DNA of 64,000 nt from the NCBI GenBank assembly GCA_024679065.1, contig JAGIQG010000012.1, positions 87,296,001-87,360,000 on the forward strand. The letters run 5' to 3'. Shown here in pieces: positions 25,812-62,031 of this stretch. A program made the position numbers and the translations under genes. The stretch's first letter is position 1. Each line of letters opens with the position of its first letter. Under the pieces are notes generated by a model. It ran no database searches and was not told where the DNA came from. It saw only the letters and a list, made by a program, of their open reading frames with translations. This DNA is from Sphyrna mokarran. Lineage: Eukaryota.

Positions 25812-26446
25812 TTAAACCTCTCACTTTGAAAAGTTCCACCCAGGAAGGGGAGCTGGAGTGGTTAATTGTGTTCCTCTTTATCTACACTTTAACTTTATTC
25901 GCTGATAAAGAAAAGGATATGAAACCAGCTGCAGTTGTTGGGACACCTTGTGTTTCAATGTGTTTACTGGACACACAATAAACGGTGTGGAGAAACAGGA
26001 TTGTCACTCTGTCGAGATGATCAGTAAAACTCTTTTTGTTCTAACTCTGTCTCTCTGTGTTTCTGGGGGTAAGTACAAGTTATTGTTTGGTTTGGAGAAG
26101 TTTCACTTGAGATTAAAATAACTCTCCCTGGTTTGTGCTGCTGTGTGTGTCAGCTCCTGTATTGTGTGTGGATTCCACAGTTAGAACATTCAGAACTGGA
26201 TATGAGTCTTACAGGAGAATTTATCATTGTATTGAGATAGTTTAGTGTATCTGACACAGAATTACACAGACTGGGAACACGGATCACAGAACTGAGTGTT
26301 CCACCATTCTTTCCAGTTTAATGGGACCATGGGTTTGACTGACAGTCTGTACATTAATTGGGCGTATTCGTGGGCACTGCGAGACACCAGTATTAAACAC
26401 TGTGCCACCGTTCCACTCCACCACTAGCAACACTGTCCCAACACCT
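25812..26446 (+). repeat. Promoter/leader/intron-start block, copy 1 (copies at 34714-35330 and 42480-43280)
   Basis: Direct three-way homology; core around the exon nearly identical. Confidence 0.93.
26017..26068 (+). CDS. Signal-peptide (leader) exon L1, MISKTLFVLTLSLCVSG-G
   Basis: GAGATGA start context, basic residue then hydrophobic core, 52 nt, phase-1 donor G|GTAAGT compatible with all V exons. Confidence 0.85.
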
Positions 26447-26905
26447 AGAACAAAGAACAAAGAACAAAGAACAAAACAGCACAGGAAACAGGCCCTTCGG
26501 CCGCCACCCCGATGTTCCCAACTCTACCCGTGATCCCTGTCCATGTTTATAGATCTATAGGTTAAAAACCAAATTTGAGACAATTTAGAGAGAATTTGTT
26601 TTGCCAATTAGCCTAAGAGCACATCTTTGGGATGTGGGAGGAAACCAGAGCATCCGGAGAAAACCCACGCAAGCACGTGGAGAATGCGCAAACTCCCACA
26701 GACACAGGCCCAAATCCATGTATCTGCACAGCACAGCGATAGTCACTGAGCTGTCGTGTTGCCCATCAAATGGTCCAGGTCAAGCGTACACTAACGACGT
26801 GAAGCACTAGGATACTCTCGAAAAAATATCCAAGAGCAGCCCTCTCACGACCCATCATGTGTATGCCCCTCGTTAGACAACAAGGTGGACCAAAGCACCT
26901 GTACG
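26447..26905 (-). mobile_element. 3' portion of a SINE-containing CR1 3'UTR family, (TTCTTTG)n tail
   Basis: Homologous to 46740-47155 and 48172-48640. Confidence 0.75.
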
Positions 26906-27246
26906 ATAAAAACAAGTACATCAATATCATCATCTATTTACACACTTCCCAGGGATTCCCAAGGCTCATGATCCCTATTTTAAATCAGTTTTCTATACCC
27001 CTCCATTCTTTTCCTGAACTTTCTGAATGTTGACTATCCTTGAATATTCAGTCCCCGGCCTTGGTCATCCAGCTGCCGTGTCTCTGTAATGCCTATTAGA
27101 CCATTTCTGTTTGCTTCTATTTGTGTCATCAATTCATCTATTTATTGGGAACGCTGTGAGCATTCAGAGTGTTTTTCATTCTGTATTTTGAACATTATTG
27201 GGTATTTTGATTCGATTTGATGTCGGCCTTTGTTTCTGCAGCCTTC

Positions 27247-27780
27247 ATAGAACATAGAACATAGAACAATACAGCACAAACAGGCCCTTCGGCCCATGAG
27301 TTGCGCCGATCACATCTACCAATCCACAGACCTATCTATAACCCCCTATCCTATTCTTTTCCATATACTCATCCAGAAGTCTTTTAAAAGACCCCAGTGA
27401 GTTTGCCTCAATAACCTCCGACGGCAGTCGGTTCCATTCACTCACCACCCTCTGAGTGAAAAACCTACCCCTGACATCTCCTTTGTATTTGCTTCCCTGC
27501 ACCTTAAATCTGTGTCCTCTCGTAGTGACCATTTCAGCTCGGGGAAATAGTCTCTGAGAGTCCACCCTATCTATTCCTCTCAACATTTTATAAACCTCTA
27601 TCAGGTCGCCTTTCAACCTACGTCTCTCCAGTGAGAAGAGTCCCAGCTCCCTCAATCTATCTTCATAAGGCCTGCCTCCCAATCCAGGCAGCATCCTTGT
27701 AAATCTCCTCTGAACCCTCTCAATAGCCTCTACATCATTCCTATAATGAGGCGACCAGAACTGCGCACAATACTCTAACT
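27247..27780 (-). mobile_element. CR1 3' fragment
   Basis: ORF 27332-27694; (CATAGAA)n tail. Confidence 0.9.
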
Positions 27781-28156
27781 GGGAGTATTATATCCTTCGA
27801 TTATTGCTTTTCAAATTCCCATTCCAAGCTTTTTCTCCCATCTGAATTCCCAGCCAGGATTACTCAGGCTGCCACCTTATTGGCTGATATTACCTACATT
27901 AAAACTTCCAAAGAAGGTCATTGTCTAGAAAGCACCTTGAGACGATGAGTAGGTGTGAGGAGTGCTGTATGATTACAAGTCTTTCTTGCTTTTACTGTCA
28001 GATTATTAATGAATTCTGGCTCATTACAAAATCAAATATGTCCCTTAATGTGTCTGAAACATATTCAGAAACTGTTCAATCCACAACAATTCCTGGCCGT
28101 GAACACACACAGTGACATGGAACGTTGTTACTGATAACAACAGTCTCAGTAAATTC

Positions 28157-28740
28157 CCAGACAGAGGTTTCAGATCAGATGGGAAATGAGAGTATAACTA
28201 GTACACAGCAACAAGCCACATCCTGTCATCAAATTCATAAAATCACCAGTTATACCCGAACCTCAACACCATGACAAGTGAATTACAGATTGTAATGTCT
28301 AAGGTGTGTTTCCGTCACCGTTCAGTGATAATCCCACAGCATCATGTTCAATCCTTCTTCCTTTGTCTGGAGAACTTCATTGTGTCTCTAACCAGCTCAT
28401 TCGCTATTGCCCCAAGACTGCTCTGAATTAGATCTTGTTTTGTGTCAATAGATCTGATTGTTGTCCCTGTCCCTATTCTTGTGTTCCATCTTAGTTTCTC
28501 AAAGATTTTGAGTTACCCTGGAATATTTCCCTTTCCTGTTGCTGCTACGGTGGCACAGAGATTTGCACTGCTGCCTCACAGTGTCAGGGACCCGGGTTCA
28601 TTTCGGATCTCGGGTAACTGTGTAGAGTTTGGGTGTCCTTCCACTTTTTTGTGGCTTTCCTTCGAATGCTCTGCTTTACTCACACACTCCAAAGATATTT
28701 AGTTTAAATTGATTGATTAAATTGCTCCTTAGTGTCCAAA
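28157..28740 (+). repeat. Intron-1 block C ending in an HE1-like SINE, duplicated at 43588-44170
   Basis: CAGACAGAGGTTTCAGATCAGAT..CAAGCCACATCCTGTCATC.. shared. Confidence 0.88.
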
Positions 28741-29329
28741 CATGATGAGGTTAGATGGATTTGAAATGAGAAATCTGTGGTGTCATTGGGATAGGACCGT
28801 GTATGATGCTATTTTGGAGATTCTGTACAATCTGAATGGGTCAAACAGCTTCTTCTGCAGTGATTCTGTGATTCTATTCTATATTGCTGTGCTAATTCAC
28901 TTTGTGTTCCACATTGCTTCTCTTTATTCTGAACTTCTGTTGCCCGGTTACAGATTTCTGAATCTATTTTGGTGAAACGTGAACTCATTGATTTCCTGTC
29001 AGTTGAGTCTATCTGCTCCATCTTCTCTTACTTCCATTTTTAATGACAGGATTTGGATTTCACTGTCAGTAAACCTTCACTGCTGCCTGAAACTCTCTTC
29101 CCATTTTCCGTCTGGGTGTTTGAATTGCTGAAGCTCTGCTTCATTCTGTCCCAGACTTCTTCTCCAGTTCAGTGGGTGCAAGAGTGTAGCGACTGAGACC
29201 ATCTAGAGTTAAGTTTTCACTGCTGCAAACCTCTCCATTCACAGCTCCAGCTGTCCAGCTTGATTTCTCTATTCTCCATAGCAGCTGAGTCCTGGGGAAT
29301 GAGTGCTTTTTATTCCAGCTGGGTGTCGC

Positions 29330-29720
29330 TATAAGACCAGCATTTATTGTCTATCCTTAATTCCCTTTGGGATGGTGATGGTGAGCTATGTTGCTAGACA
29401 AATAATGTGGATACAACAGCAACTTAGGGAACAAATATGCTGCACAGAATAACTAACCAGCTGACTCCCCAAAGCCTGTCCACCAAGGCACAGGTCAGGA
29501 GTGTGATGGAATATTCTCCACTTGTCTGGAAGATGCAGTTCCAATAACATTCAAGAAACTCAACACCATCCAGGACAAATCAGCCTGTTTGATTGGCACC
29601 CCATCCACCACCTTCAACATTCACTCCCCCCACCAATGGACACACAGTAACAGCCGTGTGTACCATCTACAAGATGCACTGCAGAAACTCACCAAGGCTC
29701 CTTTGACAGCACCTTCCAAA
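29330..29720 (+). mobile_element. Fragment of a second CR1/L2-group LINE lineage
   Basis: AQVRSVMEYSPL..KLNTIQDK; same family as 56320-57385. Confidence 0.7.
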
Positions 29721-30500: not shown

Positions 30501-30509
30501 TTTGAAAAG

Positions 30510-31273: not shown

Positions 31274-31449
31274 TTAATGTCAAACTCTCCCATGTTATAA
31301 TCACTGTTTGCTAAATATCCCCTTCCAGTCAGATTCTGAATTAAACCTGTCTGATTATTCATTATTAAATCCACACAAACCCCAGACTGACTGGGGGCTG
31401 GGGGAACAAACAATTGCCGGGGCATTGAGTACAAGGGTCAGGGTGTCAT

Positions 31450-34903: not shown

Positions 34904-34955
34904 ATGATCAGTAAAACTCTTTTTGTTCTAACTCTGTCTCTCTGTGTTTCTGGGG
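34904..34955 (+). CDS. Signal-peptide exon L2 (identical to L1)
   Basis: Same 52 nt, donor GTAAGT. Confidence 0.8.
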
Positions 34956-42682: not shown

Positions 42683-42734
42683 ATGATCAGTAAAACTCTT
42701 TTTGTTCTAACTCTGTCTCTCTGTGTTTCTGGGG
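42683..42734 (+). CDS. Signal-peptide exon L3 (coding sequence identical to L1/L2)
   Basis: Same 52 nt; donor is GTAATT (+5 G>T). Confidence 0.78.
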
Positions 42735-43190: not shown

Positions 43191-46039
43191 ATTGGGTGTA
43201 TTTGTGGGCACTGTGAGGCAGCAGTATTAACCACTGTGCCACCGTTCCACTCCACCACTAGCAACACTCCCCCACCTCCTGTTTTTTATTTTTCTGAACT
43301 TCTGCAATGTTGACTATCCTTGAATATTCAATCCCCGGCCTTGGTCACCCAGCTGCTGTGTCTCTGTAATGCCGATCATGTCATTTCTTAATTTTTCAAA
43401 GATTTTGCGTTACCCCAGGATATTTTCCTTTCCTGTTGCTGCTGCCACAGTGTTTAGCACTGCTGCTTCACACTGTCAGGGACCCGGGCTCAATTCCAAA
43501 CATGCCTGTCTGGAGTTTGCATGTTCTCCCAGTGTCTGTGGGGGTTTCCTCTGGGGGTTCTGATTTTCTCCCACATTCCGAAGAGGTCCAGACAGAGGTT
43601 TCAGATCAGATTGGAAATGACAGTATAACTATTACACAGCAACAAGCCACATCCTGTCATCAAATCTACATAATCACCAGTTACACCCAAACCTCAACAC
43701 CATGACAAGTGAATTACAGATTGTAATGTCTAAGGTGTGTTTCCCTCACCGTTCAGTGATAATCCCACAGCATCATGGTCAATCCTTCTTCCTTTGTCTG
43801 GAGAACTTCATTGTGTCTCTAACCAGCTCATTCCCTATTACCCCAAGACTGCTCTGACCTGGATGTTGTTTTGTGTCAATAGATCTGATTGTTGTCCCTG
43901 TCCTTATTCTTGTGTTCCACCTTAGTTTCTCAAAGTTTTTGTGTTATCCCAGAATATTTTCCTTTCCTGTTGCTGTTATGGTGGCACAGTGATTGGCACT
44001 ACTGTCTCACAGTGTCAAGGACTCAGGTTCAATTCCAAATTTGGGTAACTGTGTGGAGTGTCACGTTCCCTCCATGTCTGCGTGGATTTGTTCTGGGTGC
44101 TCTGGTTTCCTCTCACAGTCCAAAGATGTGTGGATAATGTGGATTGGTCATGGGAAATTGCCCCTTAGTGTCAGGATGATTAGCAGGGCAAATACATGGA
44201 CTCATTGTTCCCTGGAGCAAGTTGAGTGGAGGAGTGATTTGTGACTGGTGCAATACAGTAAGCGATTGAATCTATTTTTAATTTTTCGCAGGTTTTTTTT
44301 CTTTTTGCCAGTAGTTTAACTTTAAAATGGAATTAAGTCGCGGGATGAGCTGGGATGGGCACGCGTTATATAAAAGGAAGGCTGCACCATACAGCGGGCA
44401 GCGTCAGGAGCGGGCAATGGAGTGAGAGGGAGCAGAGTGAAGGCTGAAAGGTCTTTGTCTCAATGGGCTGCGGCAAAAACAGGCAGAGACAGGGTAGGTT
44501 GTGGTTTTGGTTCTTTCAAAAATATAAAGGAGAGGGTAAGTATGAGTGAGAGGCCAGTTTGTTTCGGTGTCGGATGTGGGAGTTCCTGGAGATACCTAGC
44601 CTCCCGGAAGTCCATATCTGTGCCAGGTGGGTGGAACTGCAACTCCTGAGGGACCGTGTCAGGGAACTGGAGCTGTGGCTCGATGACCTTAGTTTAGTCA
44701 GGGAGAATGAGGAATTAATAGAGAGAAGTTATAGGCAGGTAGTTATACAGGGGCCTCGAGAGAAAGACACGTGGGTCACGGTAAGGAAGGGTAAAAGTCA
44801 GAAGGCTGACATACCAGGGAATACCCCAGTGACTGTCTCCCATAACAGTAAGGCCTGGGTGACAGATAGGATAGGGGAGGGGAGTGAGCAGCCAGTGAAT
44901 GGGATCCCCGTGGTTGTCCTCCTCCAAAAGAGGTATATTGTTTTGGATACTGTGGAAGAGGATGACCCTCCATGGGTAAGCTATAATGACGTGATCGTTG
45001 GCATGGAGACAGAAGGGAAAGAGGGGGATGAAGAGAGCAATAGTGGTGGGGGACGCGATGATTAGAGGCACACAGGCGGTTCTGTGAGCACGAACGAGAC
45101 TCCAGGATGGTAGTCTGCCTCCCTGGTGCCGAGGTTCTGGACGTCTCTGAGCAGATAGGAAGCGTATTAAAAAGGGAAGGTAATCAAACAGATGTCATTG
45201 TGCACATTGATGAAAATAGCATAGAAAGAAAGAGCAGGGGGGTCCTACGAGAGCAATTCGGGGAATTGGGTGCTAGGCTAAAAAGTAAGACCCACAAAAC
45301 CAAAACAAAAAAAAAACAAACACAAAAAACCCACATTGCACTGTACAAAACTCTAGTGCGGCCGCACTTGGAGTATGTGTGCAGTTCTGGTCCACATTAT
45401 AAGAAAGATGTGGAGCATTGGAGAGGTACAGAGGAGGTTTACAGGATGTTGCCTGGTATGGAGGGCAGGTCTATGAAGAGAGGTTGAAGGATTTGAGGTG
45501 TTTTCGTTAGAAAGGAGGCGGTAAGGGGACTATTGAACATATAAGATATTAGAGGTTTGATAGGGTGACAGGATAGCCTTTTCCTAGAGGAAAAGCTAGC
45601 ACGAGGGGACACACTTTAAATTAAGGGGTATGAGTTATAGGACGGATATCAGAGGTAGGTTCTTACTCAAAGAGGATTAGGGAGTGGAATGCCCTGCCGC
45701 AGCGTTGTAGATCGCCAAGTTGTGGCGTTTAAGAGGTTAGTTGATAATATATGGAAAAAATGGTTTATTAGGAGGGCATTGCTTTTTATTTTGGTCGGCA
45801 CAACATCGAAGGCCGAAGGGCCTGTTCTGTGCTGTATTGTTCTATGTTCTATGTTCTATGTTCTACGGTAGCAATCCCTGGACTGCTCCCAATGCCTAGT
45901 GTTAGTGAGGCTAGGAACAGGGAGATTGTACAATTGAATGCGTGGCTAAAGGACTGATGCAGGAGGGAGGATTTCAAATTCGTGGATCACTGGGAGGTCT
46001 TCAAGAGAGGATGCACCTGTACAAGAAGGATGTACAAGA

Positions 46040-47155
46040 CGGCCGGAATACTGTAGAGGGGAGTTATAGGATAAAAGGTAAAACTATCCGGAGTATAGAG
46101 ACTCAGAGAGACCTGGGGGTGCTGGTTCACATGTCTCTGAAGGTGGCAGTACAGGTGGAAAAGGTGATAAAGAAAGCGTATGGTATGTTAGCCTTCATAG
46201 GAAGGGGTATAGAATACAAGAGTAGGAGTCTGATGTTGCAAGTGTATAGAACGTTGGTTAGGCCTCACTTGGAGTACTGCGTCCAGTTCTGGTCGCCGTA
46301 CTACAGGAAGGATGTGGAGCCCTGGAGAGAGTGCAGAGGAGATTTACCAGGATGCTGCCTGGTATGGAAGGGCTGTCTTACGAGGAAAGGTTGAACGTAC
46401 TGGGGTTGTTTTCCCTTGAAAGACGTCGGCTGAGAGGGGATCTATTAGAGGTATATAAGATTATGAGGGGTATAGATAGAGTAAATGGTGGTAAGCTTTT
46501 TCCACCATTAGATTCGGATAGAACGAGGGGTCACGGCCTTAGGGTGAGGGGGGCTATGTATAAGACTAATATTAGAGGGCATTTTTTCACACAAAGGGTA
46601 GTGGGGGTGTGGAATGCACTACCGAGTAAGGTGGTGGGAGCAGGCACGCTAGGGTTGTTTAAGGGTCTCTTGGACAGCCACATGAGCGGTCTGCAGATAG
46701 AGGGATATATGAGGACTGTTTAAATACTTTAATTGTTTCCACAGGCTATTCGGTCCACCTTGTTGACCAACAAGGTGCATGCATTCGGCAGGTCGTGCGA
46801 GGGCTGCTCCTGGAGGTTACTTCAGGAGTGGCCTAGTGCTTCACGTCGTTAGTGTATGCTTAAACTGGACCATCAGATGGGCAACATGACAGCTCAGAGA
46901 CTATCGCTGTTGCTGTGCAGACACATGGATTTGGGCCTGTGTCTGCGGGAGTTTGTGCGTTCTCCCCGTGGTTGCGTGGGTTTTCTCCGGGTGCTCCGGT
47001 TTCCTCCCACATCCCAAAAATGTGCTGTTAGGCTGATTGGGTAACAAATTGTCCCTATATTGGTCTCTATATGTCATTAAGATGATAGGACGCGGGCTCG
47101 TTGGGCCGAAGGGCCTGTTTCCCGTGCTGTGTTGTTCTTTGTTCTTTGTTCTTTG
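46040..47155 (+). mobile_element. CR1 3' end whose UTR contains a V-SINE-derived segment
   Basis: RT to 46723, unique spacer, degenerate SINE head, V-domain, (TTCTTTG)n. Confidence 0.85.
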
Positions 47156-48171
47156 TTTATACCCGAACTGGAAGGGCACCAATGTTCTGGCTCCCTATCC
47201 TTCCTTTTTACAGGCACATGCCTGTCCTGCAGCCCCATCAACTGCTCCTTAAAAGACACCCACATGCCAGATGTGGATTTACTCTCAAACAGCCTCTTCC
47301 AATCAACGGCCACGAATTCCTGCCTAATCCAGCTATAGTTAGCCTTTCCCCAATTTAGCACCCTACCCGTAGGACAACACTTTGCTAGAGGGTTTAAACT
47401 AATGTGGCAGAGAGACTGGGGACGAGCTCAGGGCCAGGACGAGGCTAGCTAAGAGGAAGAGCATTCTGGAAAAGGATGACCTCACTGGGCGTGGAGGTCT
47501 GGAGTGTGTCTGCTTCAATGCGAGGATTGTAACGGGTAAAACAGATAAACTTAGGGCCTTAATGCTTCCGCAAAATTTGGATGAAGTTGAGGTGACAGAG
47601 ACTTGGTTAAAAGTATAGGATTGGCAGCTGAATATTCCAGGGTATAAGTGTTTTCGGTGAGACAGAGGAGGGGCTAAAAGAGGTGGGGGAGTAGCAATAT
47701 TAGTCAGGGAGCATATTACAATGGTGTAGAGGGTGGACAATTTAGAGAGATATTGTAACGAAGCGCTGTGGGTGGAGCTCACAAACAGGAAGGGCGCAGT
47801 CACTATGATGAGGGTGTATTACAGGCTACCCAACAGCCCACGGGAAATGGAGGAATGGATATGTAAGGAGATTCTGGATAGGTACAGAAAAAATAGGGTT
47901 GTTGTAGTGGGAGATATTAATTTCCCTGGTACAGACTGGAAAGTGCTTAGGGCTGAGGGTCTGGACAAGGTGAAGAATTTGTAAAATGTGTACAGGAAGG
48001 TTCTTTGGAACAACATGTAGATAGCCCAACTAGAGAGAGGGGGTTATACAGGACCTAGTACTGAGGAATGAGCCCAGTCAGATTGTCAAAGTTTCAGCAG
48101 GGGAACATGTTGCAAATAGTGACCACAATTCTGTAAACTTTAGGATAGTAATGGAAAAGGATAAGTGTTAC

Positions 48172-49505
48172 AACAAAGAACAAAGAGCAACACAGCACGG
48201 GAAACAGGCCCTTCGGCCCAACGAGCCCGCGCCGCCATCCTAACGTCCTAATGACATATCCTTGTCTTTAGGCTATGCCTATTGTTGAAGATTCCCATAT
48301 AGGGACCAATATAGGGACAATTTGTTACCCAATCAGCCTAAGAGCACATTTTTGGGATGTGGGAGGAAACCGGAGCACCCGGAGAAAACCCACGCAACCA
48401 CGGGGAGAACGCGCAAACTCCCGCAGACACAGGCCCAAATCCATGTGTCAGCACAGCAACAGCGATAGTCTCTGAGCTGTCATGTTGCCCATCAGATGGT
48501 CCAGTTTAAGCATACACTGACGACGTGAAGCACTAGGCAACTCCTGAAGCAACCTCCAAGAGCAGCTCTCGCACGACATGCCGCATGCATGCCCCTTGTT
48601 GGTCAACAAGGTGGACCGAATTGCCTGCGGAAACAAATAAGACTTAATTAAACATGCTAAAAAAAACTAAGACATTCCCGAAACTAAAAGATAGTCTACT
48701 ACTATTTGGTCCTCCCGATATTCAAACAGTCCTGCTATATCCCTCTATCTGCAGACCGCTCATGTGGCTGTCCAAGAGACCCTTAAACAACCCTAGCGTG
48801 CCTGCTCCCACCACCTTACTCAGCAGTGCATTCCACACCCCCACTACCCTTTGTGTGAAAAACTGGCCTCTAATATTCGTCTTATACATAGCCCCCCTCA
48901 CCCTGAGCCCGTGACCCCTCGTTCTATCCATTTCTAATGGTGGAAAAAGCTTACCACCATTTACTCTATCTATACCCCTCATAATCTTATATACCTCTAA
49001 AAGATCCCCTCTCAGCCGACGTCTTTCAAGGGAAAACAACCCCAGTGTTTTCAATCTTTCCTCGTAAGACAGCCCTTCCATACCAGGCAGCATCCTGGTA
49101 AATCTCCTCTGCACTCTCTCCAGGGCCTCTACATCCTTCCGGTAGTACGGCGACCAGAACTGGACGCAGTACTCCAGATGAGGCCTAACCAACGTTCTAT
49201 ACACCTGCAACATCAGACTCCTACTCTTGTATTCTATACCCCTTCCTATGAAGGCTAACATACCATACGCTTTTTTTACCACATTCTCCACCTGTACTGA
49301 CACCTTCAGAGACTTGTGAACTTGCACCCCCAGGTCTCTCTGCATCTCTATACTCCGGATAGTTTTACCTTTTATCCTATAACTCCCCTCTACATTATTC
49401 CGGCCAAAATGCATCACCTCGCATTTATCCGGATTAAATTCCATTTGCCATCTATCTGCCCAATCTACCAGCCTATCTATGTCATGTTGTATTGCCAGGC
49501 ACTGC
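48172..49505 (-). mobile_element. Second copy of the SINE-containing CR1 family
   Basis: ORF 48722-49500 nearly identical to 45942/46331; same UTR layout. Confidence 0.85.
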
Positions 49506-49605
49506 NNNNNNNNNNNNNNNNNNNNNNNNNNNNNNNNNNNNNNNNNNNNNNNNNNNNNNNNNNNNNNNNNNNNNNNNNNNNNNNNNNNNNNNNNNNNNNN
49601 NNNNN
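49506..49605. other. Assembly gap (100 N)
   Basis: Run of N. Confidence 1.
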
Positions 49606-51334
49606 ACATCCTACGGGTAGTGTGCTAAATTGGGGAAAGGCTAACTATAGCCGGATTAGGCAGGAATTCGTGGCCGTTGATTAGAAGAGGCTGTTTGAGA
49701 GTAAATCCACATCTGGCATGTGTCTTTTAAGGAGCACTTGATGGGGCTGCAGGACAGGCATGTGCCTGTAAAAAGGAAGAAGAGGAAAGGTAGGATTCGA
49801 GAATCGTGGATAACCAGGGAAATTGAGGGTCTGATCAAAAAGGAAAGAGAGATGTACGTTAGGACCAGGCAACTGAAAACAGACGGAGCACTGGAGGAAT
49901 ACAGAGAAAGTAGGAAAGAACTCAAACGGGGAGTTCAAAGGGCAAAAAGGGGTCATGAAATGTCCTTGGCAGGCAATATTGAGGAAAATCTTAAGGCATT
50001 TCATTTATAAGTTTGGAACAAAAGAGTTGTCAGGGAAAAATTTGGACCTCTCAGGGACAAAGAAGGTGAATTATGCCGAGAGCCCAAGGAAGTAGCGGAG
50101 ATCCTCAATGCATCAGTATTCACAAAGGAGAGGGACGTGTTGACTGGGAGTGGTTCAGAGGGAGGTGTTGACCTATTAGAGTAAATCTCCATTACAAGGA
50201 AGCAAGTGTTAGGTTTTTGAGGGAACATTAAAACTGACAAATCTCCAGAGCCTGATGGCATCTATCCTAAATAGCACAGGGAGACAAGAGATGAAATTGC
50301 TGGGCCTCTAACAGAAATCTTTGTCTCTTCATTGGATACAGCTGAGGTCTCTGAGAATTGGAGGATAGTGAATGTGGTCCCATTATTTAAGAAGGGTAGC
50401 AAGGATAACACAAGTAATTATAGGCCAGTGAGCTTGACATCTGTGGTAGGGAAATTGTTGGAGAGGATTCTTACAGATAGGATATATGTACATTTAGAAC
50501 AGAACAATCTCATTAGCAATAGACAGCATGGTTTTGTAAGAGAGAGGTCATGTCTCACAAATTTGGTGGAGTTTTTTGAGGAGGTGACTAAAACGGTTGA
50601 TGAGGGAAGGGCCTTGGATATCATCTATATGGATTTTAGTAAAGCGTTTGACAAAGTCCTTCACGGCAGGTTGGTGCATGAGGTTAAATCTCATGGAATA
50701 AAAGGAGAGGTGGGTAGGTGGGTAGAGAACTGGCTTGGCCACAGAAGACAGAGAGTAGCAGTGGAAGGGTCTGTTTCCGGCTGGAAGTCTGTGACCAGTG
50801 GTGTTCCACAGGGCTCTGTACAGGGACCTCTGCTATTTGTGATATATCTCAATGATTTAGTAGAAGGGTAAGTGGTGTGATCAGCACGTTTGTGGATGAA
50901 ACGAAGGTGTCTGGACTTACAAATAGCGATGAACATTGTCAGAGAATACAGCAGGATATAGATAGGCTGGAAAATTGGGCAGAGAAATGGCAAATGAAAT
51001 TTAATCCAGATAAATGCGAAGTGATGCATTTTGGTAAGGCTTATGTAGGGGGGAGCAAAGAACAAAGAACAAAACAGCATGGGAAACAGGCCCTTCGGCC
51101 CAACGAGCCTGCGCCACCACCTCGATGTTCCCACTTCAACCCGTGATCCCTGTCTATGTTTATAGATCTATGGATTAAAAACCAAATTTGAGACAATTTA
51201 GGGAGAATTTGTTTTGCCAATTAGCCTAAGAGCACATCTTTGGATGTGGGAGGAAACCGGAGCACCCAGAGAAAACCCACGCAAGCACGGGGAGAATGCG
51301 CAAACTCCCACAGACACAGGCCCAAATCCAATGT

Positions 51335-52630
51335 AGCTCATTGTTCTCTGGGACAGAGTGTTTGGAAGTGCTGGTGGCTGAGTGTGAATTTTTCAATTTG
51401 CTTTTTTTTCTCTCTCTGTTCTTGAGTGCTTTTTGCTGCTGTAGTTAGGCGTGGGGCTAGCTGGGAAGGGAACCAGGGAGTATAAAAAGAAAGTGGCAGT
51501 AGACAGCGGGCAGCATCAGGAGTGGGCAGTGGAGTGAGTAGGGAAGCAGAGTGAAATATAAGGGCTTTGGCTTGGGGGCTTAGGCGAGAGCAGGCTCAGG
51601 CACAGTGTGCTACTGGTTTTCCAGTACATTCACACTTCCAAAGGTGTTCATGACAATGGCAGGGATTAAGGGAAGACGCCTCACCTGCGTATGGTGTCAT
51701 ATGTGGGAGTTCCTGGAGGCGAGATCTCTCCCAAAAGTCCACGTATGCCTCAAGCGTTTGGAGCTGCAGCGTCTGAGGGCTCGGGCCAAGCAACTAGAGT
51801 GGCAATTGGAGGATGCATTTTTAGTCAGGGAGAACGAGGCAATCATGGAAGAGATGCAGATTAATGTTGCGGAGCCAGAGCTAAGGAGGGGGGAACCTGA
51901 CCCTTACAGGTGGATTATTGTAAGGAAGGGGAAGCTACACAATAAATGGCAGAACCATCAAAAGTACAGACAACACGGAGGGACCTGGGTGTGCAAGTCC
52001 ACAAGTCCTTGAAAATGGCACTACAAGTGGAGAAGGTGTTAAAGAAGGCATATGACATGCTTACCTTTGTAGGACAAGGTATAGAATATAAAAATTGGCA
52101 TCTGATGTTACAGCTGTATAGAATGTTGGTTAAACCACATTTGGAATACTGTGTCCAGTTCTGGTTGCTGCACTACCAGAAGGACGTGGAGGCTTTGGAG
52201 AGAGTGCAGAGAAGGTTTACCAGGATGCTGCCTGGTATGGAGAGTCTTAGTTATGAGGAGAGATTGGGTAAACTGGGGTTGTTCTCCCTGGAACGACAGC
52301 GAATGAAGGGAGACCTAATTAAAGTGTATAAAATTATGAGGGGTGAGGATAGGGTGAACCGTGGGAAGATTTTTCCCAGGTCAAAGGTGACAAACACAAG
52401 GGGTCACAGGTTCAAGGTGAGGGGGTTGGAGGGGGCAAGGTTTAACTCAGATATCAGAGGGATGTATTTTACACAGAGGGTGGTGGGGACCTGGAATGCA
52501 CTGCCAAGCAGGGTGGTGGAGGTGGACACGCTGGAAATGGAGGGTATACAAATGACTGGTTCAGTTGGACCAATGAGCGGTGCAGGCTTGGAGGGCCAAA
52601 GGAGCTTTTCCTGTGCTGTATTGTTTTTTG
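51335..52630 (+). mobile_element. Internally deleted CR1 (5'UTR and ORF1 N-terminus joined to the RT 3' end)
   Basis: CVWC..CLKRLELQRL, then RRDLGVQVHKSLK and tail. Confidence 0.85.
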
Positions 52631-53052
52631 TATAGGGATAGCACCTGAATAAGATGCTCTTTTGGAGAGTCAGTGCAGTGTCAATGGGCCAAATGGCCTC
52701 TTTCCCATAAAGGCAGCCTTTCCTCAGTTCTTTCCTCAGCCTTTCTCTGCTCCTGACGTCACTAAACTCTCTACAGGTGGGATAAGAGAATCCCACCCAA
52801 AATCTGGGATGTGTAGCTTTCTCTGAGACAGCTGTTCCACAGTGTGAGGACAACATTGTATTTCACTGTTACATCAACACATCTGCATTGCTGAGGACAG
52901 CACAGTGTAACCCCCAGGATATAGAGCAGGAACAAACTAACGCAGCAAGATCAATCTTAGAAACTGTTCCCTCCCTTTAACACAGAAACTCTACTGCCTG
53001 GACTGTCCCTTTAAATACTCACGGGAATTTGAAACCTTCAGCTCAGAATTTA

Positions 53053-53319
53053 ACTCACTGATTTCTGTCACTCACTGATTTCCGTCACTCACTGATTTCT
53101 GTCACTCACTGATTCGTGTCACTCGCTGATTTCTGTGACTCACTGATTCCTGTCACTCGCTGATTTCTGTGACTCACTGATTTCTGTCACTCGCTGATTT
53201 CTGTGACTCACTGATTCCTGTCACTCGCTGATTTCTGTGACTCGCTGATTCCTGTCACTCACTGATTTCTGACACTCGCTGATTTCTGTCACTCACTGAT
53301 TTCTGTCACTCACTGATTT
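53053..53319 (+). repeat. 17-bp minisatellite (ACTCACTGATTTCTGTC), about 16 copies, abutting the V1 acceptor
   Basis: Directly visible tandem array. Confidence 0.95.
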
Positions 53320-53338
53320 GTTTTTCCTCTGTTTAAAG

Positions 53339-53683
53339 GTGCGAATGTTCCAGTCGTTATCCAGTCTCCGAGTGTGGAACGTGTCACAGAGGGTCAGACT
53401 GCCCGGTTACAGTGCACCCTGAGGAACGCCGCAGTGACACACAGTCTTGTTTCCTGGTTCCAGGAGCTACCTGGGAAAGATAGGGAGAGAGTTTTAGTAG
53501 ATGAACCATCGAACATCATAACCCGGAAACCAGGTTTCACTGAGCGATTCCAGTCTTCCAGAGACACCTCCAATAACAGCTTCATTCTGACAATCACCAT
53601 GGTGCAGCCCAGTGACACTGCCGTCTATTACTGCTTAGTGCATTCATCACTCTGGGGGAAAGGAAGCCGGCTGAATGTAACCA
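53339..53683 (+). CDS. Joined VJ-type Ig V-set domain exon V1 (non-rearranging antigen-receptor-like)
   Basis: tttttcctctgtttaaag acceptor and A|GTAAGT donor. Reads ANVPVVIQSP..ARLQC..VSWFQ..RFQSSRD..FILTI..DTAVYYCLVHSSLWGKGSRLNVT, with canonical Cys, Trp, Cys and WGxG, and no RSS. Confidence 0.92.
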
Positions 53684-53859
53684 GTAAGTAGAGTTTTATT
53701 CCAATAATCCACAGCAATAACCTCTTCCAGATGAGTGAGTTGGAGATGAGGTTATGATGATGTGTGGGCTTTGGGGTTACAATAGGAACAGGGAGAGGCT
53801 GAGATTGGGAAGTGTAATAGGAGCTGTTCCCCATTCAGACACACATCACTGTATACTGA

Positions 53860-55215
53860 TAAGAACATAAGAAATAGGAGCAGGAGTCGGCCATCCAGCC
53901 CCTCGAGCTGCCCCACCATTCAATAAGATCATGGCTGATCTGTAGTGGTTCAGTACCACTTTCCCACTTTCTCCCTGTAATTCTTAATTCCCTTGTTAAT
54001 TAAAAACCTATCCATTCTTGACTTGAACATATTCAGTGAGGAAGCCTCCACCACCTCATCAGGCAGAGAATTCCAAAGATTCACCACCCTTTGTGTGAAG
54101 AAACTCCTCCGCAACTCTGATCTGAACCACTACCCGCCCCTAATATGGAGGCTGTGCCCTCTAGTCCTGCTATCTTTGCAAAGCGGGAAGAGTCTCTCAA
54201 CCTCTACCCTATCTATCCCCTTCATTATCTTATATGTCTCTATAAGATCTCCTCTCAGCCTTCTAAACTCCAAAGAGTACAAACCCAGCCTATTCAATCT
54301 CTCCTCATAATCAAAACCCCTCATCTCCGGTATCAGCCTAGTGAACCTTCTCTGCACCCCCTCCAAGGCCAATATATCCTTCCTCGAATGCGGTGACCAA
54401 AACTGCACACAGTACTCCAGCTGCGGCCTCACCAGCCCCCTATACAGCTGCAACAGAACCTCCCTACTTTTATATTCTATCCCCCTCGCTATAAAGTCCA
54501 ACATTCCATTCACCTTCTTAATCACCTGCTGCACCTGCATACTGTGTTTTTGCGATTCGTGCACAAGGACCCCCAGGTCCCTCTGCACCATCACATGCTG
54601 CAGCTTTTCTCCATTTAAATAGTAATCCTTCCTACCATTATTCTTACCAAAGTGGATAACCTCACACTTGCTAACATTATACTCTATCTGCCTGTTTCAC
54701 GCCCACTCACTCAACCTATCCAGATCCCTCTGCAGGCTTTCCACACCCTCCACGCAATTTGCTTTTCCACTCATCTTCATGTCATCAGCAAATTTCATCA
54801 CCCTGCACTCAGCCCCTTCCTCCAGATCGTCTATGTAAATGGTAAATAGTTGCGGCCCCAGCACCGATCCCTGGGGCACTCCACTAGTCACCAGCTGCCA
54901 ATCAGAATAGCACCCGTTAATACCTACTCTCTGCTTCCTATTAGACAACCAATCCTCTATCCAGTCTAACACCCCACCCTCAATTCCCTGCACCCTAAAC
55001 TTCTGCAGCAATCTTTTGTAAGGCACCTTATCAAGTGCCTTTTGGAAATGCAAAAACACCACATCCACCGGTTCCCGTCTATCTACCGCACTAGTCACTT
55101 CCTCATAGAACTCCAATAAATTCATCATAGAACTCCAATCGACTTCCTCTTAACGAATCCACGCTGCATCTGCTTGATCAAATAGTTTGTATCCAGGTGC
55201 CTCCTTATTTCTGCT
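53860..55215 (-). mobile_element. CR1 3' half (AAGAACATAAGAA-tail subfamily)
   Basis: ORFs 54130-54594 and 54697-55128. Confidence 0.9.
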
Positions 55216-55460
55216 TTGACGACAGAAAATCCTGATCCTGCTATCCCAGCTCCTATCCTTATCCCAGATATTTTCACTCATTTCCTCACACAAATGTGTT
55301 GTGTTTGCTGTGAATCAGTAATGAGCCACACCAGTCTTACAAACTGTTACACAAAAACCTCAGGAGAACAGAGATCCTCTCACTTTAACACAGAAACTCT
55401 ACTGCCTGGACTGTCCCTTTAAATACTCACGGGAATTTGAAAGCTTCAGCTCAGAATTTA

Positions 55461-55646
55461 ACTCACTGATATCTGTCACTCTGATTTCTGTCACTCACTG
55501 ATACTCACTGATATCTGTCACTCACTGATTTCTGTCACTCACTGATATCTGTCACTCTGATTTCTGTCACTCACTGATTTCTGTCACTCACTGATTCCTG
55601 TCACTCACTGATTTCTGTCACTCACTGATTTCTGTCACTCACTGAA
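55461..55646 (+). repeat. Same 17-bp minisatellite, about 11 copies, abutting the V2 acceptor
   Basis: Directly visible tandem array. Confidence 0.95.
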
Positions 55647-55667
55647 TTGTTTTTCCTCTGTTTAAAG

Positions 55668-56012
55668 GTGCGAATGTTCCAGTCCTTATCCAGTCTCCGA
55701 GTGTGGAACGTGTCACAGAGGGTCAGACTGCACGGTTACAGAGCACCCTGAGGAACGCCGCAGTGACACACACTGATGTTCACTGGTACCGGGAGCTACC
55801 TGGGAAAGATAGGGAGAGAGTTTTAACACAGGATACAGGGAATAACATACACCGGAGCCCAGGTTTCACTGAGCGATTCCAGTCTTCCAGAGACACCTCC
55901 AATAACAGCTTCATTCTGACAATCTCCATGGTGCAGCCCAGTGACACTGCCGTCTATTACTGCTCAGTGTGGGGAGATATCAGTGGCAATGGGACACTGC
56001 TGAATGTAACCA
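55668..56012 (+). CDS. Joined VJ-type V-set exon V2 (paralogue of V1; B-strand Cys replaced by Ser)
   Basis: Same splice sites as V1; ..ARLQSTL..TDVHWYR..DTAVYYCSVWGDISGNGTLLNVT; open frame. Confidence 0.85.
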
Positions 56013-56319
56013 GTAAGTCCAGTTTACAGAAATATCTGCCTGAAGGAATCACCACTTGTAACTGTGTGGGAAGTGAGTGTGTGAGAAATATCACAAACCC
56101 CTGGGTTAAAGGGAACACGTTAGAAAAATAGACTGGGTGATCTCATGCACTTTTGTCAAAGAATAAAAATTGTGCATCGCTCCTGATTTCTCAGTCTTCA
56201 ATTCTTTGACATTTTCTCTGTTTCTCTGTTTCTGTTTGTTTCTAATCTTTCTCCCTCTCCTTTGTTTACTCAGCTTTTTGTCAGAGTGCTGTCTCCAGCT
56301 GTTTCTGTTTTATATTCAT

Positions 56320-57385
56320 TCTTGGTGGGTGTTACTGGTTAGGGTCCATCCCTAGTTACCCTTCAGAAGGTGGTGGTGAAACAGCCTCTTGATCTGTTAC
56401 AGCCCATGTGGTGTAGGTACATTCACAGTGCAGTCAGGATTGGAAATTCCAGGATTCTGACCCAGAGACAGTGAAGGAACGGTGATATATTTCCAAGTCA
56501 GGATTGTGAGTGACTCGGAGAGAAGCCTCCAGGTGATGATGTTCCCCATGTGCCTCCTGCCCTTGTCCTTTTAGAGTCAAAATCATCAAGTTGTAGAGTC
56601 ACAGAGCGCAGAAATGGTAGAGGTTATAGATTTAGAAGGTTCTGTTAAAGGAGCCTTGGTGAGTTCCTGCAGTGTATCTTGTAGATGGTACACACGCCTG
56701 TCACTGTGTGTCCATGGTGGTGGGAGTGAATGTTTAATGTGATGGGTGGTGTCCCCATCAAGCACTTTGGCTTTGTTCTGGATGGTGTCAAGCTTCTTAA
56801 GTGTTATTGGAGCTGCACTCATCCAGGCAAGTGGAGAGTATTCCATTACATTCCTGACTTGTGCCTTGTAGGTGGTGGACAGGCTTTGGGGAGTCAGGAG
56901 GTGAGTTACCCTCTGCAGTTTCCCAGTCTCTGACCTGCTCTTGTAACCATAGTTTTTACAGGGCTGGCCCAGTTCAGTTTCTGGTCAATGGTAACCCCCA
57001 GGATGTTGACAGTGGGGGATTCAGTGATGGAAATGCCATTGAATGTCAAGGGGTGATGGTTAGATCCTCTGTTGTTAGAAATGTTCATTGCCTGGCACTT
57101 CTGTGGGGAAATGTTACCTTCCATATAACAGCCCAAGTCTGAATGTTGTCCAGGTTTTGCTGTGTGCAGGAACAGGCTTCTTCAGTAATGGAGGAGTAAT
57201 GAATGGTCCAATCATTAATGAACATTCCCACTCCTGACCTTATGATGGAGGGAAGGTCATTGATGAAGCAGCTGAAGATGGTTGGGCCGAGGACACTTCC
57301 CTGAGGAAATCCTGCAGTGATGTCCTGGAGCTGAGATGATTGACCTCCAACAATCTTCCTTTGTGCTGGATATGACTGCGGATGG
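56320..57385 (-). mobile_element. Second CR1/L2-group LINE lineage, 3' part
   Basis: NILGVTIDQKLNW; MEYSPLAWMSAAP..KLDTIQNKA. Confidence 0.82.
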
Positions 57386-57626
57386 AGAGGAAAAGGTGAG
57401 GAAAGCAGTGGATATGATGGGATTCAGGGAATTAGGGATTTCAGGGAATATGATGTAGGAGATGGGAAATGAACAGGGAAGCACTGGAGGCTGTGATCAG
57501 GGAGGAGGAATGGTTGAGGTTTTGAGCTTGGCACACTGCTGGGTATTAGGAATAGGGAGAGTCTTAGGGATGAGGAGCAAACATTAGGTGAGACAACAAT
57601 GTCCACATCCTGGGAAAAAGAATGCT

Positions 57627-60070
57627 TAAGAACATAAGGAATAGGAGCAGGAGACGACCATGGCTCCTCTCGAGCCTGCTCCACTATTCAATAAGATCAT
57701 GGCTGATCTGCAGTGGTTGAGTTCCACTTTCCCACTTTCTCCCCGTAACCCTTAATTCCCTCGTCAATTAAAAACCTATCCACTCTCGATTTGTACATAT
57801 TCGGTGAGGGAGCCTCCATCACCTCATTAGGCAGAGAATTCCAAAGATTCACCACCCTTTGCGTGAAGAAATCCCTCCACAACTCCGATCTGAACCCCAC
57901 CCCCCTCACATCTTGAGGCTGTGCCCTCTAGTCCTGCTATCTTTGCTAATCAGGAAGAGTCTCTCAACCTCTACCCTAACCATCCCCTTCATTATCTTAT
58001 ACGTTTCTATAAGATCCCCTCTCAGCCTTCTAAACTCCAAAGAGTACAAACCCAGCCTATTCAGTCTCTCCTCATAATCCAACGCCCTCATCTCCGGTAT
58101 CAGCCGAGTAAACCTTCTCTGCACCTCCTCCAAGGCCAATATATCCTTCCTCGAATGTGGCGACCAAAACTGCACACAGTACTCCAGCTGCGGCCTCACC
58201 AGTACCCTATACAGCTGCAAAAGTATCTCCCTACTTTTATATTCTATCCCCCTAGCTATAAAGGCCAATATTGCATTCGCCTTCTTAATCACCTGCTGCA
58301 CCTTCATACTGTGTTTTTGCGATTTGTGCACGAGGACCCCCAGGTCCCTCTACATCGTTGCATACTACAGCTTTTCTCCATTTAAATAGTAGTCTTTCCT
58401 ACCATTATTCCTACCAGAGTGGATAACCTCACACTTGCTAACATTATACTCCATCTGCCAGGTCCTCGCCCACTCACTCAACCTATCCAGATCCCTCTGC
58501 AAGTTTGCACACCCTCCACGCAATTTGCTTTTCCACTCATCTTCATGTCATCAGCAAATTTCATCACCCTCAAATAGTTGAAGCCCCAGCACCGATCCCT
58601 GGGGCACTCCGCTAGTCACCAGCTGCCAATCAGAATAGCACCCATTAATACCTACCCTCTGCTTCCTATTAGACAACTGATCCTCTATCCAGTCTAACAC
58701 CCTACCCTCAATTCCCTGCACCCTAACCTTCTGCAGCAATCTTTTGTGAGGCATCTTATCAAACGCTTTCTCGAAATCCAAAAACACCACATCCACCGGT
58801 TCCCCTCTATCTACTGCACTAGTCACTTCCTCATAGAACTCCAATAGATTCGTCAAACACGACTTCCCCTTAACGAATCCGTGCTGCGTCTGCCTGATCA
58901 AACTGTTCGTATCCAGCTGCCTCATTATTTCCGCTTTGACTACAGATTCAAGCATTTTTCCTACTATAGACATTAAACCAACCGGCCTATAATTCCCTGC
59001 CTTCTGTCTGCTACCCTTTTTAAACAGCGGCATAACATTTGCCGTTTTCCAATCTTCCAGCACTTTTCCAGAGTCCAGCGAATTCTGAAAGATAATTACC
59101 AGGGCATCCACTATCACTTCTGCCATTTCCTTTGAGAATCCTGAGATGCATTCCATCCGGCCCTGGGGACTTATCTACCCTCAGCCCCATTAGCCTATCA
59201 ACCTCTATAGTGACTGTAATCTCATCAAGGACCTCATCTCCTATCGCCCTTCTATCCTTAATTTCGGGCAAGCTATTTACGTCCTCCTCTGTAAAGACCG
59301 ACACAAAAAACTTATTCAAGGTCTCCGCCATATCCTTATCATCCACGATTAAACCACCCCTCTCATCCTCCAAGGATCCAACATTAACTCTGGCCATCCT
59401 CCTATTCTTTATATACTTATAAAAACTCTTACTGTCCTTTTTGATATTTCGAGCTAGTTTAGCCTCATATTCCGTCTTTCCTTTTTTAATCACCTTCTTA
59501 GTCATTCTTTGCTGTTGTTTAAAACTTTCCCAATTCTCTGAATGCCCACTATTTGTAGCTGCTCTGAACGCTTCAGCTTTTGATTTAATACTCTCCTTAA
59601 TTTCCCTGTAGAACCACGGCTGATTTTCCCTTCTCCTACAGTCCTTCTTCACCATCGGAATATATTTCTGCTGAGCACTGAAAAAGATCTCTTTAAAAAT
59701 CCTCCACTGTTCCTCAGCCGTCCCACCAACCAGCGCACTCCTCCAATCACAGTTGCCAATTCCTCTCTCATCCTATCGTAGTCCCCTCTGTTCAAACATA
59801 GTACACAGGTCCGGGACGCTACTACCTCATCCTCCATCTGCATTATTAATTCTATCATACTATAATCACTCGTCCCTAGAGGATCCCTCACATGAATATC
59901 CCTAATTCTACCTGCCTCATTACATAGTACCAGGTCCAAGATAGCATGGTCTCTCGTCGGTTCTGTAACATACTGTTCAAAGAACCCATCCATACAGCAT
60001 TCCAAAAACTTTTCCTCCAGCCCGCCGTGTTCAACTTGCGTCGCCCAGTCAATGTGCAGATTGAAATCAC
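57627..60070 (-). mobile_element. CR1 ORF2 (endonuclease-RT), same subfamily as 53860
   Basis: ORFs 57697-60119 with GDFN, PGPDG, QHGF and PQGSVLG. Confidence 0.92.
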
Positions 60071-60071
60071 C

Positions 60072-60395
60072 CAGGGTGGATAGTGATAGCCTTTTTCCTC
60101 GGATGGAGAAAGCTAGCATGAGGGGACATAGCTTTAAATTAAGGGGTGGTCGTTATAGGACGGATGTCAGAGGTAGGTTCTTTACCCAGAGGGTGGTAAG
60201 GGTATGGAATGCCCTGCCTGCTGCAGTTGTAGATGCGCCAAGTTTGGGGGTGTTTAAGAGGTCAGTGGATAGGTTTATGGATGAAAAGGGAATGGTTTAG
60301 GTTAGAGGGTCATTGCTTTTTCTCCATTGGTCGGCACAACATCGAGGGCTGAAGGGCCTGTACTGCACTGTAATGTTCTATGTTCTATGTTCTAT
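60072..60395 (+). mobile_element. Young CR1 3' end
   Basis: ORF 60052-60300 ends DEKGMV; TTCTATG tail. Confidence 0.9.
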
Positions 60396-61683
60396 TACTA
60401 ACACCATCCCATTTCTGCACACATCTCTTATTTGTTTGTTTATAGACCGCCCCACCTCAAAGTTGCTGTTAGGGGGCCTATGGACCACACCAGCGTCTTT
60501 CTCCCCTTACTATTTTTTATCTCCACCCAGCTTGACGCTGGAATCTGTAGAAGGAGCGGAGCCAAATTGTATCTTTAGAATTGGGAGCCACGTGTCAGGC
60601 CATTTTATCTCCAGAAACAACTGTCTGGCTATCTGTTCAGTATCCCACTGTTTATGGAGTTATCAGATGTGCTTATTATGAATGCTTGGCTGAGTTCCAA
60701 ACCGACTATGGAGCTAGTCAATTCAATAAAATTCACATGGGTTGAAGCAAAGTGCTCCTGTTTATGACAGGCATTTTGGAAGCTTCAGGAAGTTTCTTTT
60801 TTGTAGTTTTTCAATGCCTGTTTGTATACTTGAACACAGTTAAGAGATGTTGAAAAGAATAAAACTTTACCCATTGATATTTATTTCACACTTTTCTGAG
60901 GTTGTAAGATGAATAGTTTTTTTTCTGAAGCAGAATTTCAAAGCCTCTTTGCCCATTGTGTCAGTTTCAGAAACATTTCAATGAATTCTCAGACGTTCAT
61001 GTAGCACATTGCTTCTCTGTGTGGAGAATACTGGGAGAGTGGGTGTGGAGCATGGATGGGACAATGGAAGGGGCCTGGAGTTGCAGCAAGCATAAGGATC
61101 TGGAGGGATACGATGGGGCATGGAGGAGGCTTGAGGGTTATAAAGAAGAGTGGGATCTTGGAATGAATTTCCACAGATCGCTGAAGAAGGCAGGACAGGT
61201 GGATAATGGAGGGATAAGTTCCGGATCCCTGTGTCTCTTTTTATCAATTCACAACAATCCCAGAAGGGGAAAATCCAGGCCAGATAAAGAAGAGGATTAG
61301 CAGCAGTAAATCAGCCCGTGTGTGGACACACTGTAATTATTATACAGGAAATTTTAAACTTTATACCTTTACTTTCATCTTTCATTCATCTTTTTAAACA
61401 ATAACTTGAGTTTTTCCAATAATCAGCTGTGAAGATTGTGAAGTTTATTTGTTCAATAGTTTGTTTTCTGTGGGTGGGAATGTGCACTGAATGGATAATA
61501 TCTGCAAATTCTAGAACATTCAGCAGGTCCCCTTTTGTCCCCTCATTCCCTCCCTCATTGTTAACAATAATTTCCATGTTGGGAAAGTGAGAGAATTCTC
61601 TGCAAATCATTATTGTAACCAGAAGAAGATTTCTAAAATGTTGCATTTTGAGTTCTCTGATTTTTCTTTCTCAATATTAACAG

Positions 61684-62031
61684 CTCCATTGTCTGACCCA
61701 GTCCTCATGCAGTATCCAACAGTCAGCAAGGTGACAGAGGGTCAGACTGTCGACTTACAATGTGCCATGTACACTGCCAGTGTGATTGACACTGATGTCC
61801 ACTGGCATTACCAGAGAGCTGGCTACCACAGTGAGTGGCTGATCAGCCAGTTTGTGAATGGCACCGTTACCAAGTCCCGGGATTCCCACCACCGTTTCCA
61901 GCCTTCCCGGAATGTCAGCAGCAACAGCTACATTCTGACCATTGTGAATGTGACCCTCAATGATACAGCTGTGTACAGATGCAGTGTGTGGAGCTACATC
62001 TATGGAGCAGGGAGCCAGCTCAATGTCATTG
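61684..62031 (+). CDS. Joined VJ-type V-set exon V3 (divergent paralogue)
   Basis: ttttctttctcaatattaacag acceptor and G|GTAAAG donor, phase 1/1. Reads PVLMQYPTVSKVTEGQTVDLQC..DVHW..RFQPSRN..YILTI..DTAVYRCSVWSYIYGAGSQLNVI, with four N-glycosylation sequons. Confidence 0.9.

Follow-up and report, generated by a model that had tools for sequence, protein, structure and literature searches.

Three Identical Leader Exons Ahead of Three Single-Exon VJ Domains in a Shark: a Probable Multi-V Receptor Gene in a Duplicating Cluster

Introduction

Why should three identical leader exons stand in tandem ahead of three variable (V) exons, to any of which each leader could be spliced in frame? This arrangement occurs in a 64,000-nucleotide (nt) stretch of the genome of the shark Sphyrna mokarran (the window; G000:C224:87,296,001-87,360,000 of a 2.77-Gb assembly), where leader exons L1, L2 and L3 are followed by V1, V2 and V3, each encoding an immunoglobulin (Ig) V domain and its joining (J)-like strand in a single VJ exon. 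An earlier note had offered two explanations, namely a single multi-V chain with alternative first exons, or choice among V domains by alternative splicing as a means of diversification independent of RAG. Here we report that the six exons probably belong to one gene, L3-V1-V2-V3-TM-tail (TM, transmembrane), likely encoding an inhibitory type I receptor, with L1 and L2 likely being spare, duplicated leaders.

Results

An open gene model and its relatives

When 53 homologues were mapped to the surrounding 464 kb, a TM exon and three tail exons (c1, c2 and c3) came to light 3-14 kb beyond the window end (Table 1); the exons listed by the earlier note were correct, and these downstream ones had been overlooked. 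Joined as L3-V1-V2-V3-TM-c1-c2-c3, the set yields an open frame of 483 amino acids (aa) with AG/GT at every junction. The three V exons have AG/GT borders, lengths divisible by three and phase 1-1, and the leader donors are phase 1, bearing out the phase compatibility that first drew attention to the locus. Each V exon also contains a complete V-set domain (Pfam) with a J-like last strand, and V3, for which a confident structure is predicted (predicted local distance difference test score 90.4), is 94% identical to a Mustelus asterias model.

The predicted cytoplasmic tail carries three tyrosine motifs: PVYATV, CSYVEL and TEYSTV. The last matches the consensus of the tyrosine-based switch motif of immunoreceptors (ITSM), TxYxxV/I, as given in extracts of a published account (PMC11599192). 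The other two are only similar to the tyrosine-based inhibitory motif of immunoreceptors (ITIM), and paralogues have LYYADI. That paralogous sequence agrees with the ITIM consensus.

The same layout recurs in other sharks. RefSeq models from Mustelus asterias (P0018; 480 aa) and Carcharodon (P0026; 495 aa) read leader-B-B-C-TM, in the notation by which V1 and V2 are type B and V3 type C, and end in a tail of the same type; in P0018, Pfam recognizes three V-set stretches and no C1-set domain. In these sharks the RefSeq models, such as XP_078086639.1 (Mustelus asterias) and XP_041034642.1 (Carcharodon), share the leader type, B-B-C order, TM segment and three-tyrosine tail, and Heterodontus models XP_067901724-27 represent a paralogue. 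Two or more family V domains per chain occur in all but one of the 53 homologues.

Splice junctions were sought in contigs from four of 24 listed sequencing runs, of which X1, X11 and X18 were taken as RNA and X2 as DNA by guess. The V3 exon, without its introns, is covered in X1, X11 and X18, and a V2-type 3' end is spliced to V3 in each of these three RNA-like runs. From V3 the contig extends into the TM exon in X18 and into a fourth V in X11. An X1 contig joins a leader to the start of a V exon with no difference over 53338-53386, and among ten type-B exons compared this start is an exact match only to V1 and to its twin in an inverted copy of the block. Consecutive splicing exists; the contigs neither exclude skips nor identify the leader copy. 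L-V2, L-V3 and V1-V3 junctions did not occur among contigs listed for X1, X11 and X18, which is no evidence of their absence. Taken with the open gene model and the relatives of the same layout, the consecutive-exon junctions support one multi-V chain, the first of the two options originally proposed.

Two observations concern V3 itself. An X1 contig (depth 11.7) joins the end of this exon to its own start, a joint that did not recur among contigs listed for X2 or the two other runs and that may represent a back-spliced circular RNA of the in-frame 348-nt exon, or a V3-V3 tandem. The V3 donor (62032-62037) reads GTAAAG, against GTAAGT both in a contig of X2 and in two further V3 copies of the assembly; the extra A may be a homopolymer error.

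The gene product would be a type I membrane receptor of 483 aa, its three Ig domains of VJ type and its tail bearing tyrosine motifs, with L3 presumably the leader normally used. L1 and L2 would be silent, or at most redundant promoters yielding an identical protein. If SIRP-alpha and PD-1 are a guide, SH2 proteins such as SHP-1/2 would be recruited by the tyrosines of the ITSM and the ITIM-like motifs, and the tail would likely dampen immune-cell signalling. Gene duplication would supply diversity, together with shuffling and conversion among germline V exons and, to some extent, cassette skipping.

Several points weigh against this interpretation. The inhibitory function of the tail is likely by analogy and is putative. 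The ITIM consensus expects a hydrophobic residue or Ser at Y-2, and both ITIM-like motifs are without it. V2 has Ser at the B-strand Cys position, as do its twin and the exon V2', where the Mustelus counterpart has Cys; judged from sequence, none of these three exons can encode the canonical disulfide. The sequencing runs derive from other individuals or species, and none is recorded as RNA. At the V-to-V joint of X1, the upstream end is of the type of V1a, which belongs to the inverted arm, and not of V1; the middle and 3' end of V1 are uncovered in that run, the middle present being V2-type and the end V1a-type, and V1-type pieces are present in the DNA-like run X2. Expression of V1 over its full length is therefore putative. 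No read places the leader copy, and L1 and L2, which retain the ATG, the frame and a better donor than that of L3 (Table 1), may be in use as well. The twin of the block containing V1 to V3 precedes a different TM exon, so that the tail following V1-V3 is uncertain. Finally, annotated skipping of whole V domains in relatives counts in the same direction.

Duplicated leaders

The leaders share a 52-nt coding sequence, identical in all three and encoding a 17-residue signal peptide, as originally described. The count of three was true and incomplete: an assembly search revealed at least eight copies of the leader block in ~220 kb, on both strands, which adds five identical leaders to those first noticed. 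Over eight copies, variable sites number 18 of 430 in flanking sequence and none of 52 in coding sequence, a coding invariance at chance level given the flanks (p=0.11; Fisher p=0.24); an intronic run of 145 nt is the longest without variation. Because leader identity is no higher than that of the flanking DNA, it reflects recent duplication or conversion. L1, L2 and L3 lie on one gap-free stretch, differ pairwise at 7-9 of 482 nt and bear different repeat insertions; L2 has its closest relatives among leaders beyond the window, from which it differs at 5 of 482 nt, as against 7-9 for L1 and L3.

Upstream, ~150-200 nt are common to L1, L2 and L3. L2 and L3 have additional homologous segments, reaching about -1.1 kb in L2 and -0.5 kb in L3; the homology of L1 with either ends at -204. 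The "own promoter blocks" formerly ascribed to the leaders can be recognized as duplicated upstream sequence at each, and as nothing beyond it; any promoter there is putative. Elsewhere in the cluster, the 145 kb examined behind one leader contain no V exon, and the L3 donor recurs in an orphan leader at window-equivalent position 114605. The stretch holding L1 and L2 duplicates, in inverted orientation and at 97-99% identity, an arm immediately to the left of the window that carries a tandem pair of leaders.

The earlier failure to find V exons between the leaders, or leaders ahead of V2 or V3, was borne out. A V-profile search of 9200-53300 gave no domain match and blastn one 13-nt chance match, leaving no remnant of a V, TM or tail exon in that interval, and no leader-like match occurs in the V1-V2 or V2-V3 intron. 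We consider the tandem leaders likely to be remnants of repeated local segmental duplication.

The best surviving alternative is that all three leaders work as alternative promoters and first exons spliced to V1, giving more of one and the same protein or a wider range of tissues that make it. Each does have an intact ATG, frame and donor together with the common upstream segment, and the two-leader arrangement is present on the inverted arm too; yet the 52 coding nt are not conserved beyond their flanks, L1 loses homology past -204, the cluster contains plainly orphaned copies of the same block, and models from named relatives have one leader of this type (identical leaders would be invisible in models). 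We regard this alternative as unlikely, though deserving of more credit than those considered below.

The L3-V1 interval, the assembly gap and an inverted twin

The interval from L3 to V1 measures 10,604 nt, 73% of it multi-copy sequence. Its length of about 10.6 kb had been given correctly and regarded as an oddity; elsewhere in the cluster a leader and its V lie about 2.4, 5.8, 6.4 or 12 kb apart, so that it is normal for the family. Most of this intron is occupied by an old long interspersed nuclear element (LINE), presumably CR1-type, with nested insertions, one of which contains the assembly gap, a run of 100 N. An intact copy of the LINE elsewhere aligns with 47417-48169 and resumes at 49609-50400 with an offset of 1-2 nt. 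Both flanks of the gap therefore belong to one LINE, interrupted by a nested insertion, and the collinearity of L3 and V1 is real. The initial caveat about a misjoin is therefore largely cleared for L3 and V1, whereas the partner TM and tail exons are made uncertain by an identical twin block.

This block X, of 12,431 nt and containing V1 to V3, has an identical inverted copy that the earlier note overlooked (Table 1). Both copies start at a 100-N gap, and nearby arm blocks are 97-99% alike; the identity could be due to very recent conversion, heterozygous inversion or false duplication. On the inverted arm, the V2'-V3 intron is interrupted by the other gap, and no last tail exon was found within 22 kb on that other arm. 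Either orientation of the middle contig keeps L1-L3 ahead of V1-V3; the TM/tail partner would change.

These features raise the alternative that the arrangement is partly an assembly product, in which a heterozygous inversion or collapsed repeat has doubled block X and maybe lined up leaders from different gene copies or haplotypes, or hidden exons in a gap. Perfect identity over the whole block from the same base at two gaps, beside arm blocks that diverge by a few percent, and the severing of the V2'-V3 intron at the second gap are what such an error might leave. The leaders, however, are mutually distinct in both substitutions and repeat insertions on gap-free sequence, the LINE is unbroken across the window gap, and a flipped middle contig would still place L1-L3 before an identical V1-V3. 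An assembly origin is accordingly improbable, and rather more so than leaders in shared use.

V exons probably joined in series

The remaining alternative is that V domains are chosen by alternative splicing (L-V1, L-V2, L-V3 and skips) to generate a RAG-independent repertoire. The uniform phase 1-1 of the V exons would permit such choice but is usual for exons that encode Ig domains. Of ten pairs of relatives compared, five differ by one whole V, and near-consecutive accessions mark three of these as predicted isoforms of one gene; one contig, described above, also links the end of V3 to its start. But the annotated skips concern a different paralogue (A-B-C-B and A-B-B-C), in which the number of domains is all that changes; this is ordinary cassette skipping and no repertoire mechanism. 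Contigs contain consecutive V-to-V junctions, and rare skips lie beyond their resolution. Since three V exons offer 7 combinations at most, observed junctions are consecutive, sharks and rays preserve the linear order of domains, and choosing among identical leaders cannot alter the protein, this second option of the earlier note is not supported and we give it very little credence.

A likeness to clustered protocadherins or Dscam, in which multiple first exons or interchangeable Ig exons stand in a row, is superficial. In those systems the alternative exons encode different ectodomains, whereas the first exons in the shark encode identical signal peptides and its V exons are joined in series.

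No heptamer or nonamer recombination signals were found within 60-80 nt outside the V exon ends, the single heptamer match being inside V3. Tandem arrays of a 17-nt unit lie directly 5' of the V1 and V2 acceptors (53053-53319 and 55461-55648); such arrays also precede V1a and V1b, with only about two units in gene C. V1, V1a and the V exon of gene B are mosaics having one framework and differing segments like those of complementarity-determining regions (CDRs), a pattern that suggests gene conversion between exons.

Relationships of the family

Named relatives are all cartilaginous fish: every row naming a species among the 120 best profile matches was a shark or ray (one row was nameless), and a chimaera member of the family exists. 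Their models carry automatic names only (SIRP-alpha-like, pIgR-like, IgSF3-like or uncharacterised), and tandem leaders are not visible in proteins. After the family itself, the nearest named V domains are of the Ig light chain sigma-2 type (among 10 single-domain matches looked up). V1 and V2 are 41-47% and V3 35-41% identical to shark sigma-2 or sigma-2-like chains, against 21-39% for other Ig light chain, heavy-chain V and T cell receptor (TCR) rows. Germline joining of the sigma-2 V with its J is reported from gar, coelacanth and turtle (PMC5985310). The shark gene does not have the V-J-C1 layout of sigma-2 light chains, differing in its tandem V repeats, lack of C1, TM segment with signalling tail, and shorter CDR3 loop.

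Trees were computed with 62 rows, and with 43 after removal of 19 redundant, long or broken rows; these rows contain no identified NKp30, SIRP, NITR, CD8 or UrIg. The family groups weakly with sigma-2 and coelacanth VJC, with a long-branch TCR-alpha inside (86/85), and a grouping of family, sigma-2 and coelacanth is neither rejected nor shown by the approximately unbiased test (p-AU 0.41). Kinship with sigma-2 is thus a lead, not a result. A sigma-2 query of the assembly, in a search that sets a lower bound, found no close V exon, only C-exon fragments at 61% (C1018 and C1027).

The possibility of a rearranging Ig/TCR locus was considered and not adopted: a single exon encodes both V and the J-like strand, with no recombination signals within 60-80 nt of its ends, and no C1 follows V, since what comes after V3 is the TM exon, alike in the gene model, the relatives and the X18 contig. 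The gene resembles UrIg and UrIg2 in its single-exon VJ with split leader, its absence of rearrangement and its homogenisation suggestive of gene conversion; those genes are described as having 3 to 11 C1 domains after a single VJ, with a place in the MHC or in the Ig/TCR complex (IgH/TCR/PSMB5) (PMC12227049). With three V domains and no C1, the shark gene was not assigned to them; it is all-V, multigene and tyrosine-tailed, and lies beside nAChR, ZNF395-family, PAQR and MCM3 genes. A lower-bound search for proteasome genes, in which the MHC itself was not sought, placed none of 24 matches on this contig.

A separate single-exon VJ (L061; G000:C994:514813-515184, minus strand) has a C exon 2 kb downstream, is 41% identical to sigma-2 V and adjoins a proteasome subunit; its contig also carries TCR and IgH V segments. 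It may be UrIg2 or another non-rearranging gene.

SIRP, NITR and CD28/PD-1 were also considered and not adopted. SIRP has the layout V-C1-C1, NITR V-I and PD-1 one V, whereas this ectodomain is V-V-V without C1-set, all three domains being full VJ-type with no I-type second domain. Features shared with SIRP-alpha, PD-1 and NITR are a V-type ectodomain with a J-like strand, a tail with ITIM-like motifs and ITSM, and a clustered birth-and-death family, and by this analogy the gene likely works like SIRP-alpha or PD-1. Among named profile matches there was no bona fide SIRP-alpha, PD-1 or NITR member, only "SIRP-alpha-like" labels on the family's own models. Searches of the PDB by sequence and by fold gave only generic V domains of antibodies and TCRs (best Z 20.1, root-mean-square deviation 2.0, 115 aligned); NKp30, SIRP and UrIg2 chains were not among the PDB matches listed, which excludes nothing. 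An atlas search yielded the probable cluster of the family itself and generic V-set clusters.

The wider cluster

The contig has 23 V exons, several of them broken, and extra TM exons. To the three V exons correctly inventoried by the earlier note the window adds an overlooked pseudo-exon, which lies close to the middle of a large palindrome with arms starting at about positions 458 and 24609. A second sub-cluster of the same family, with four V exons and two other leader types, lies ~0.5 Mb off (G000:C224:87.88-87.97 Mb; L111-L119); ZNF395-family, PAQR and MCM3 genes separate the two, and in run X1 one V end of this second sub-cluster is spliced to a V start. A scan of 100 of 591 unique open reading frames, leaving out 87.58-87.80 Mb, placed an nAChR alpha-4/2-type gene on one side of the locus and, on the other, MCM3, HlyIII/PAQR and a DUF4772 gene, which we take to be of the ZNF395 family.

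Table 1. Positions of exons and other elements of the locus, numbered from the first nucleotide of the window
Feature	Position	Strand	Remarks
V pseudo-exon, other subtype	8749..9093	+	two stops; near palindrome centre, same cluster
Leader exon L1 (distal copy)	26017..26068	+	donor GTAAGT, phase 1
Leader exon L2 (middle copy)	34904..34955	+	donor GTAAGT, phase 1
Leader exon L3 (proximal, likely the working leader)	42683..42734	+	donor GTAATT, phase 1
Old LINE with nested insertions	44300..51050 (approximate ends)	+	spans gap in register; most of L3-V1 intron
Assembly gap, 100 N	49506..49605		inside nested repeat insertion
Block X (V1-V3), 12,431 nt	49606..62036	+	identical inverted copy at G000:C224:87258207-87270669
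V1, single-exon VJ domain, type B	53339..53683	+	Pfam V-set; leader-to-V1-start contig
V2, single-exon VJ domain, type B	55668..56012	+	Pfam V-set; V2-end-to-V3 contigs
V3, single-exon VJ domain, type C, best conserved	61684..62031	+	Pfam V-set; contigs; structure model
Start of V3-TM intron	62032..64000	+	gene runs on beyond window
TM exon	67165-67315 (window-equivalent)	+	homologue mapping, gene model
Tail exon c1	68040-68083 (window-equivalent)	+	encodes PVYATV
Tail exon c2	69012-69055 (window-equivalent)	+	gene model
Tail exon c3	77713-77835 (window-equivalent)	+	CSYVEL, ITSM TEYSTV, stop

Discussion

The tandem leaders are likely ordinary duplication debris, and an annotation trap; the gene family to which they belong matters more, shark natural killer and other innate inhibitory receptors being poorly known. 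What is new is possibly this unnamed family and its potential link to sigma-2, rather than the leaders. No published description of the family or of tandem leaders was found in the literature searched, a body that excluded subscription journals and supplements; work on skate MDIR and the UrIg2 supplement could bear on novelty.

It is conceivable, with the balance lying somewhat on the other side, that the locus belongs to an inhibitory receptor family found throughout cartilaginous fish and built of tandem VJ exons of sigma-2 lineage, either an already joined antibody exon taken back into innate signalling or a retained VJ exon, never split, of the kind that gave rise to light chains, varied by shuffling, conversion and domain skipping. 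An active search is under way for VJ genes intact in a single exon, as relatives of the one split by the RAG transposon (PMC12227049). A multigene, all-VJ, ITSM-bearing family whose nearest named V domains are those of Ig sigma-2 provides a testable candidate of this kind, and may record traffic of genes between adaptive and innate receptors.

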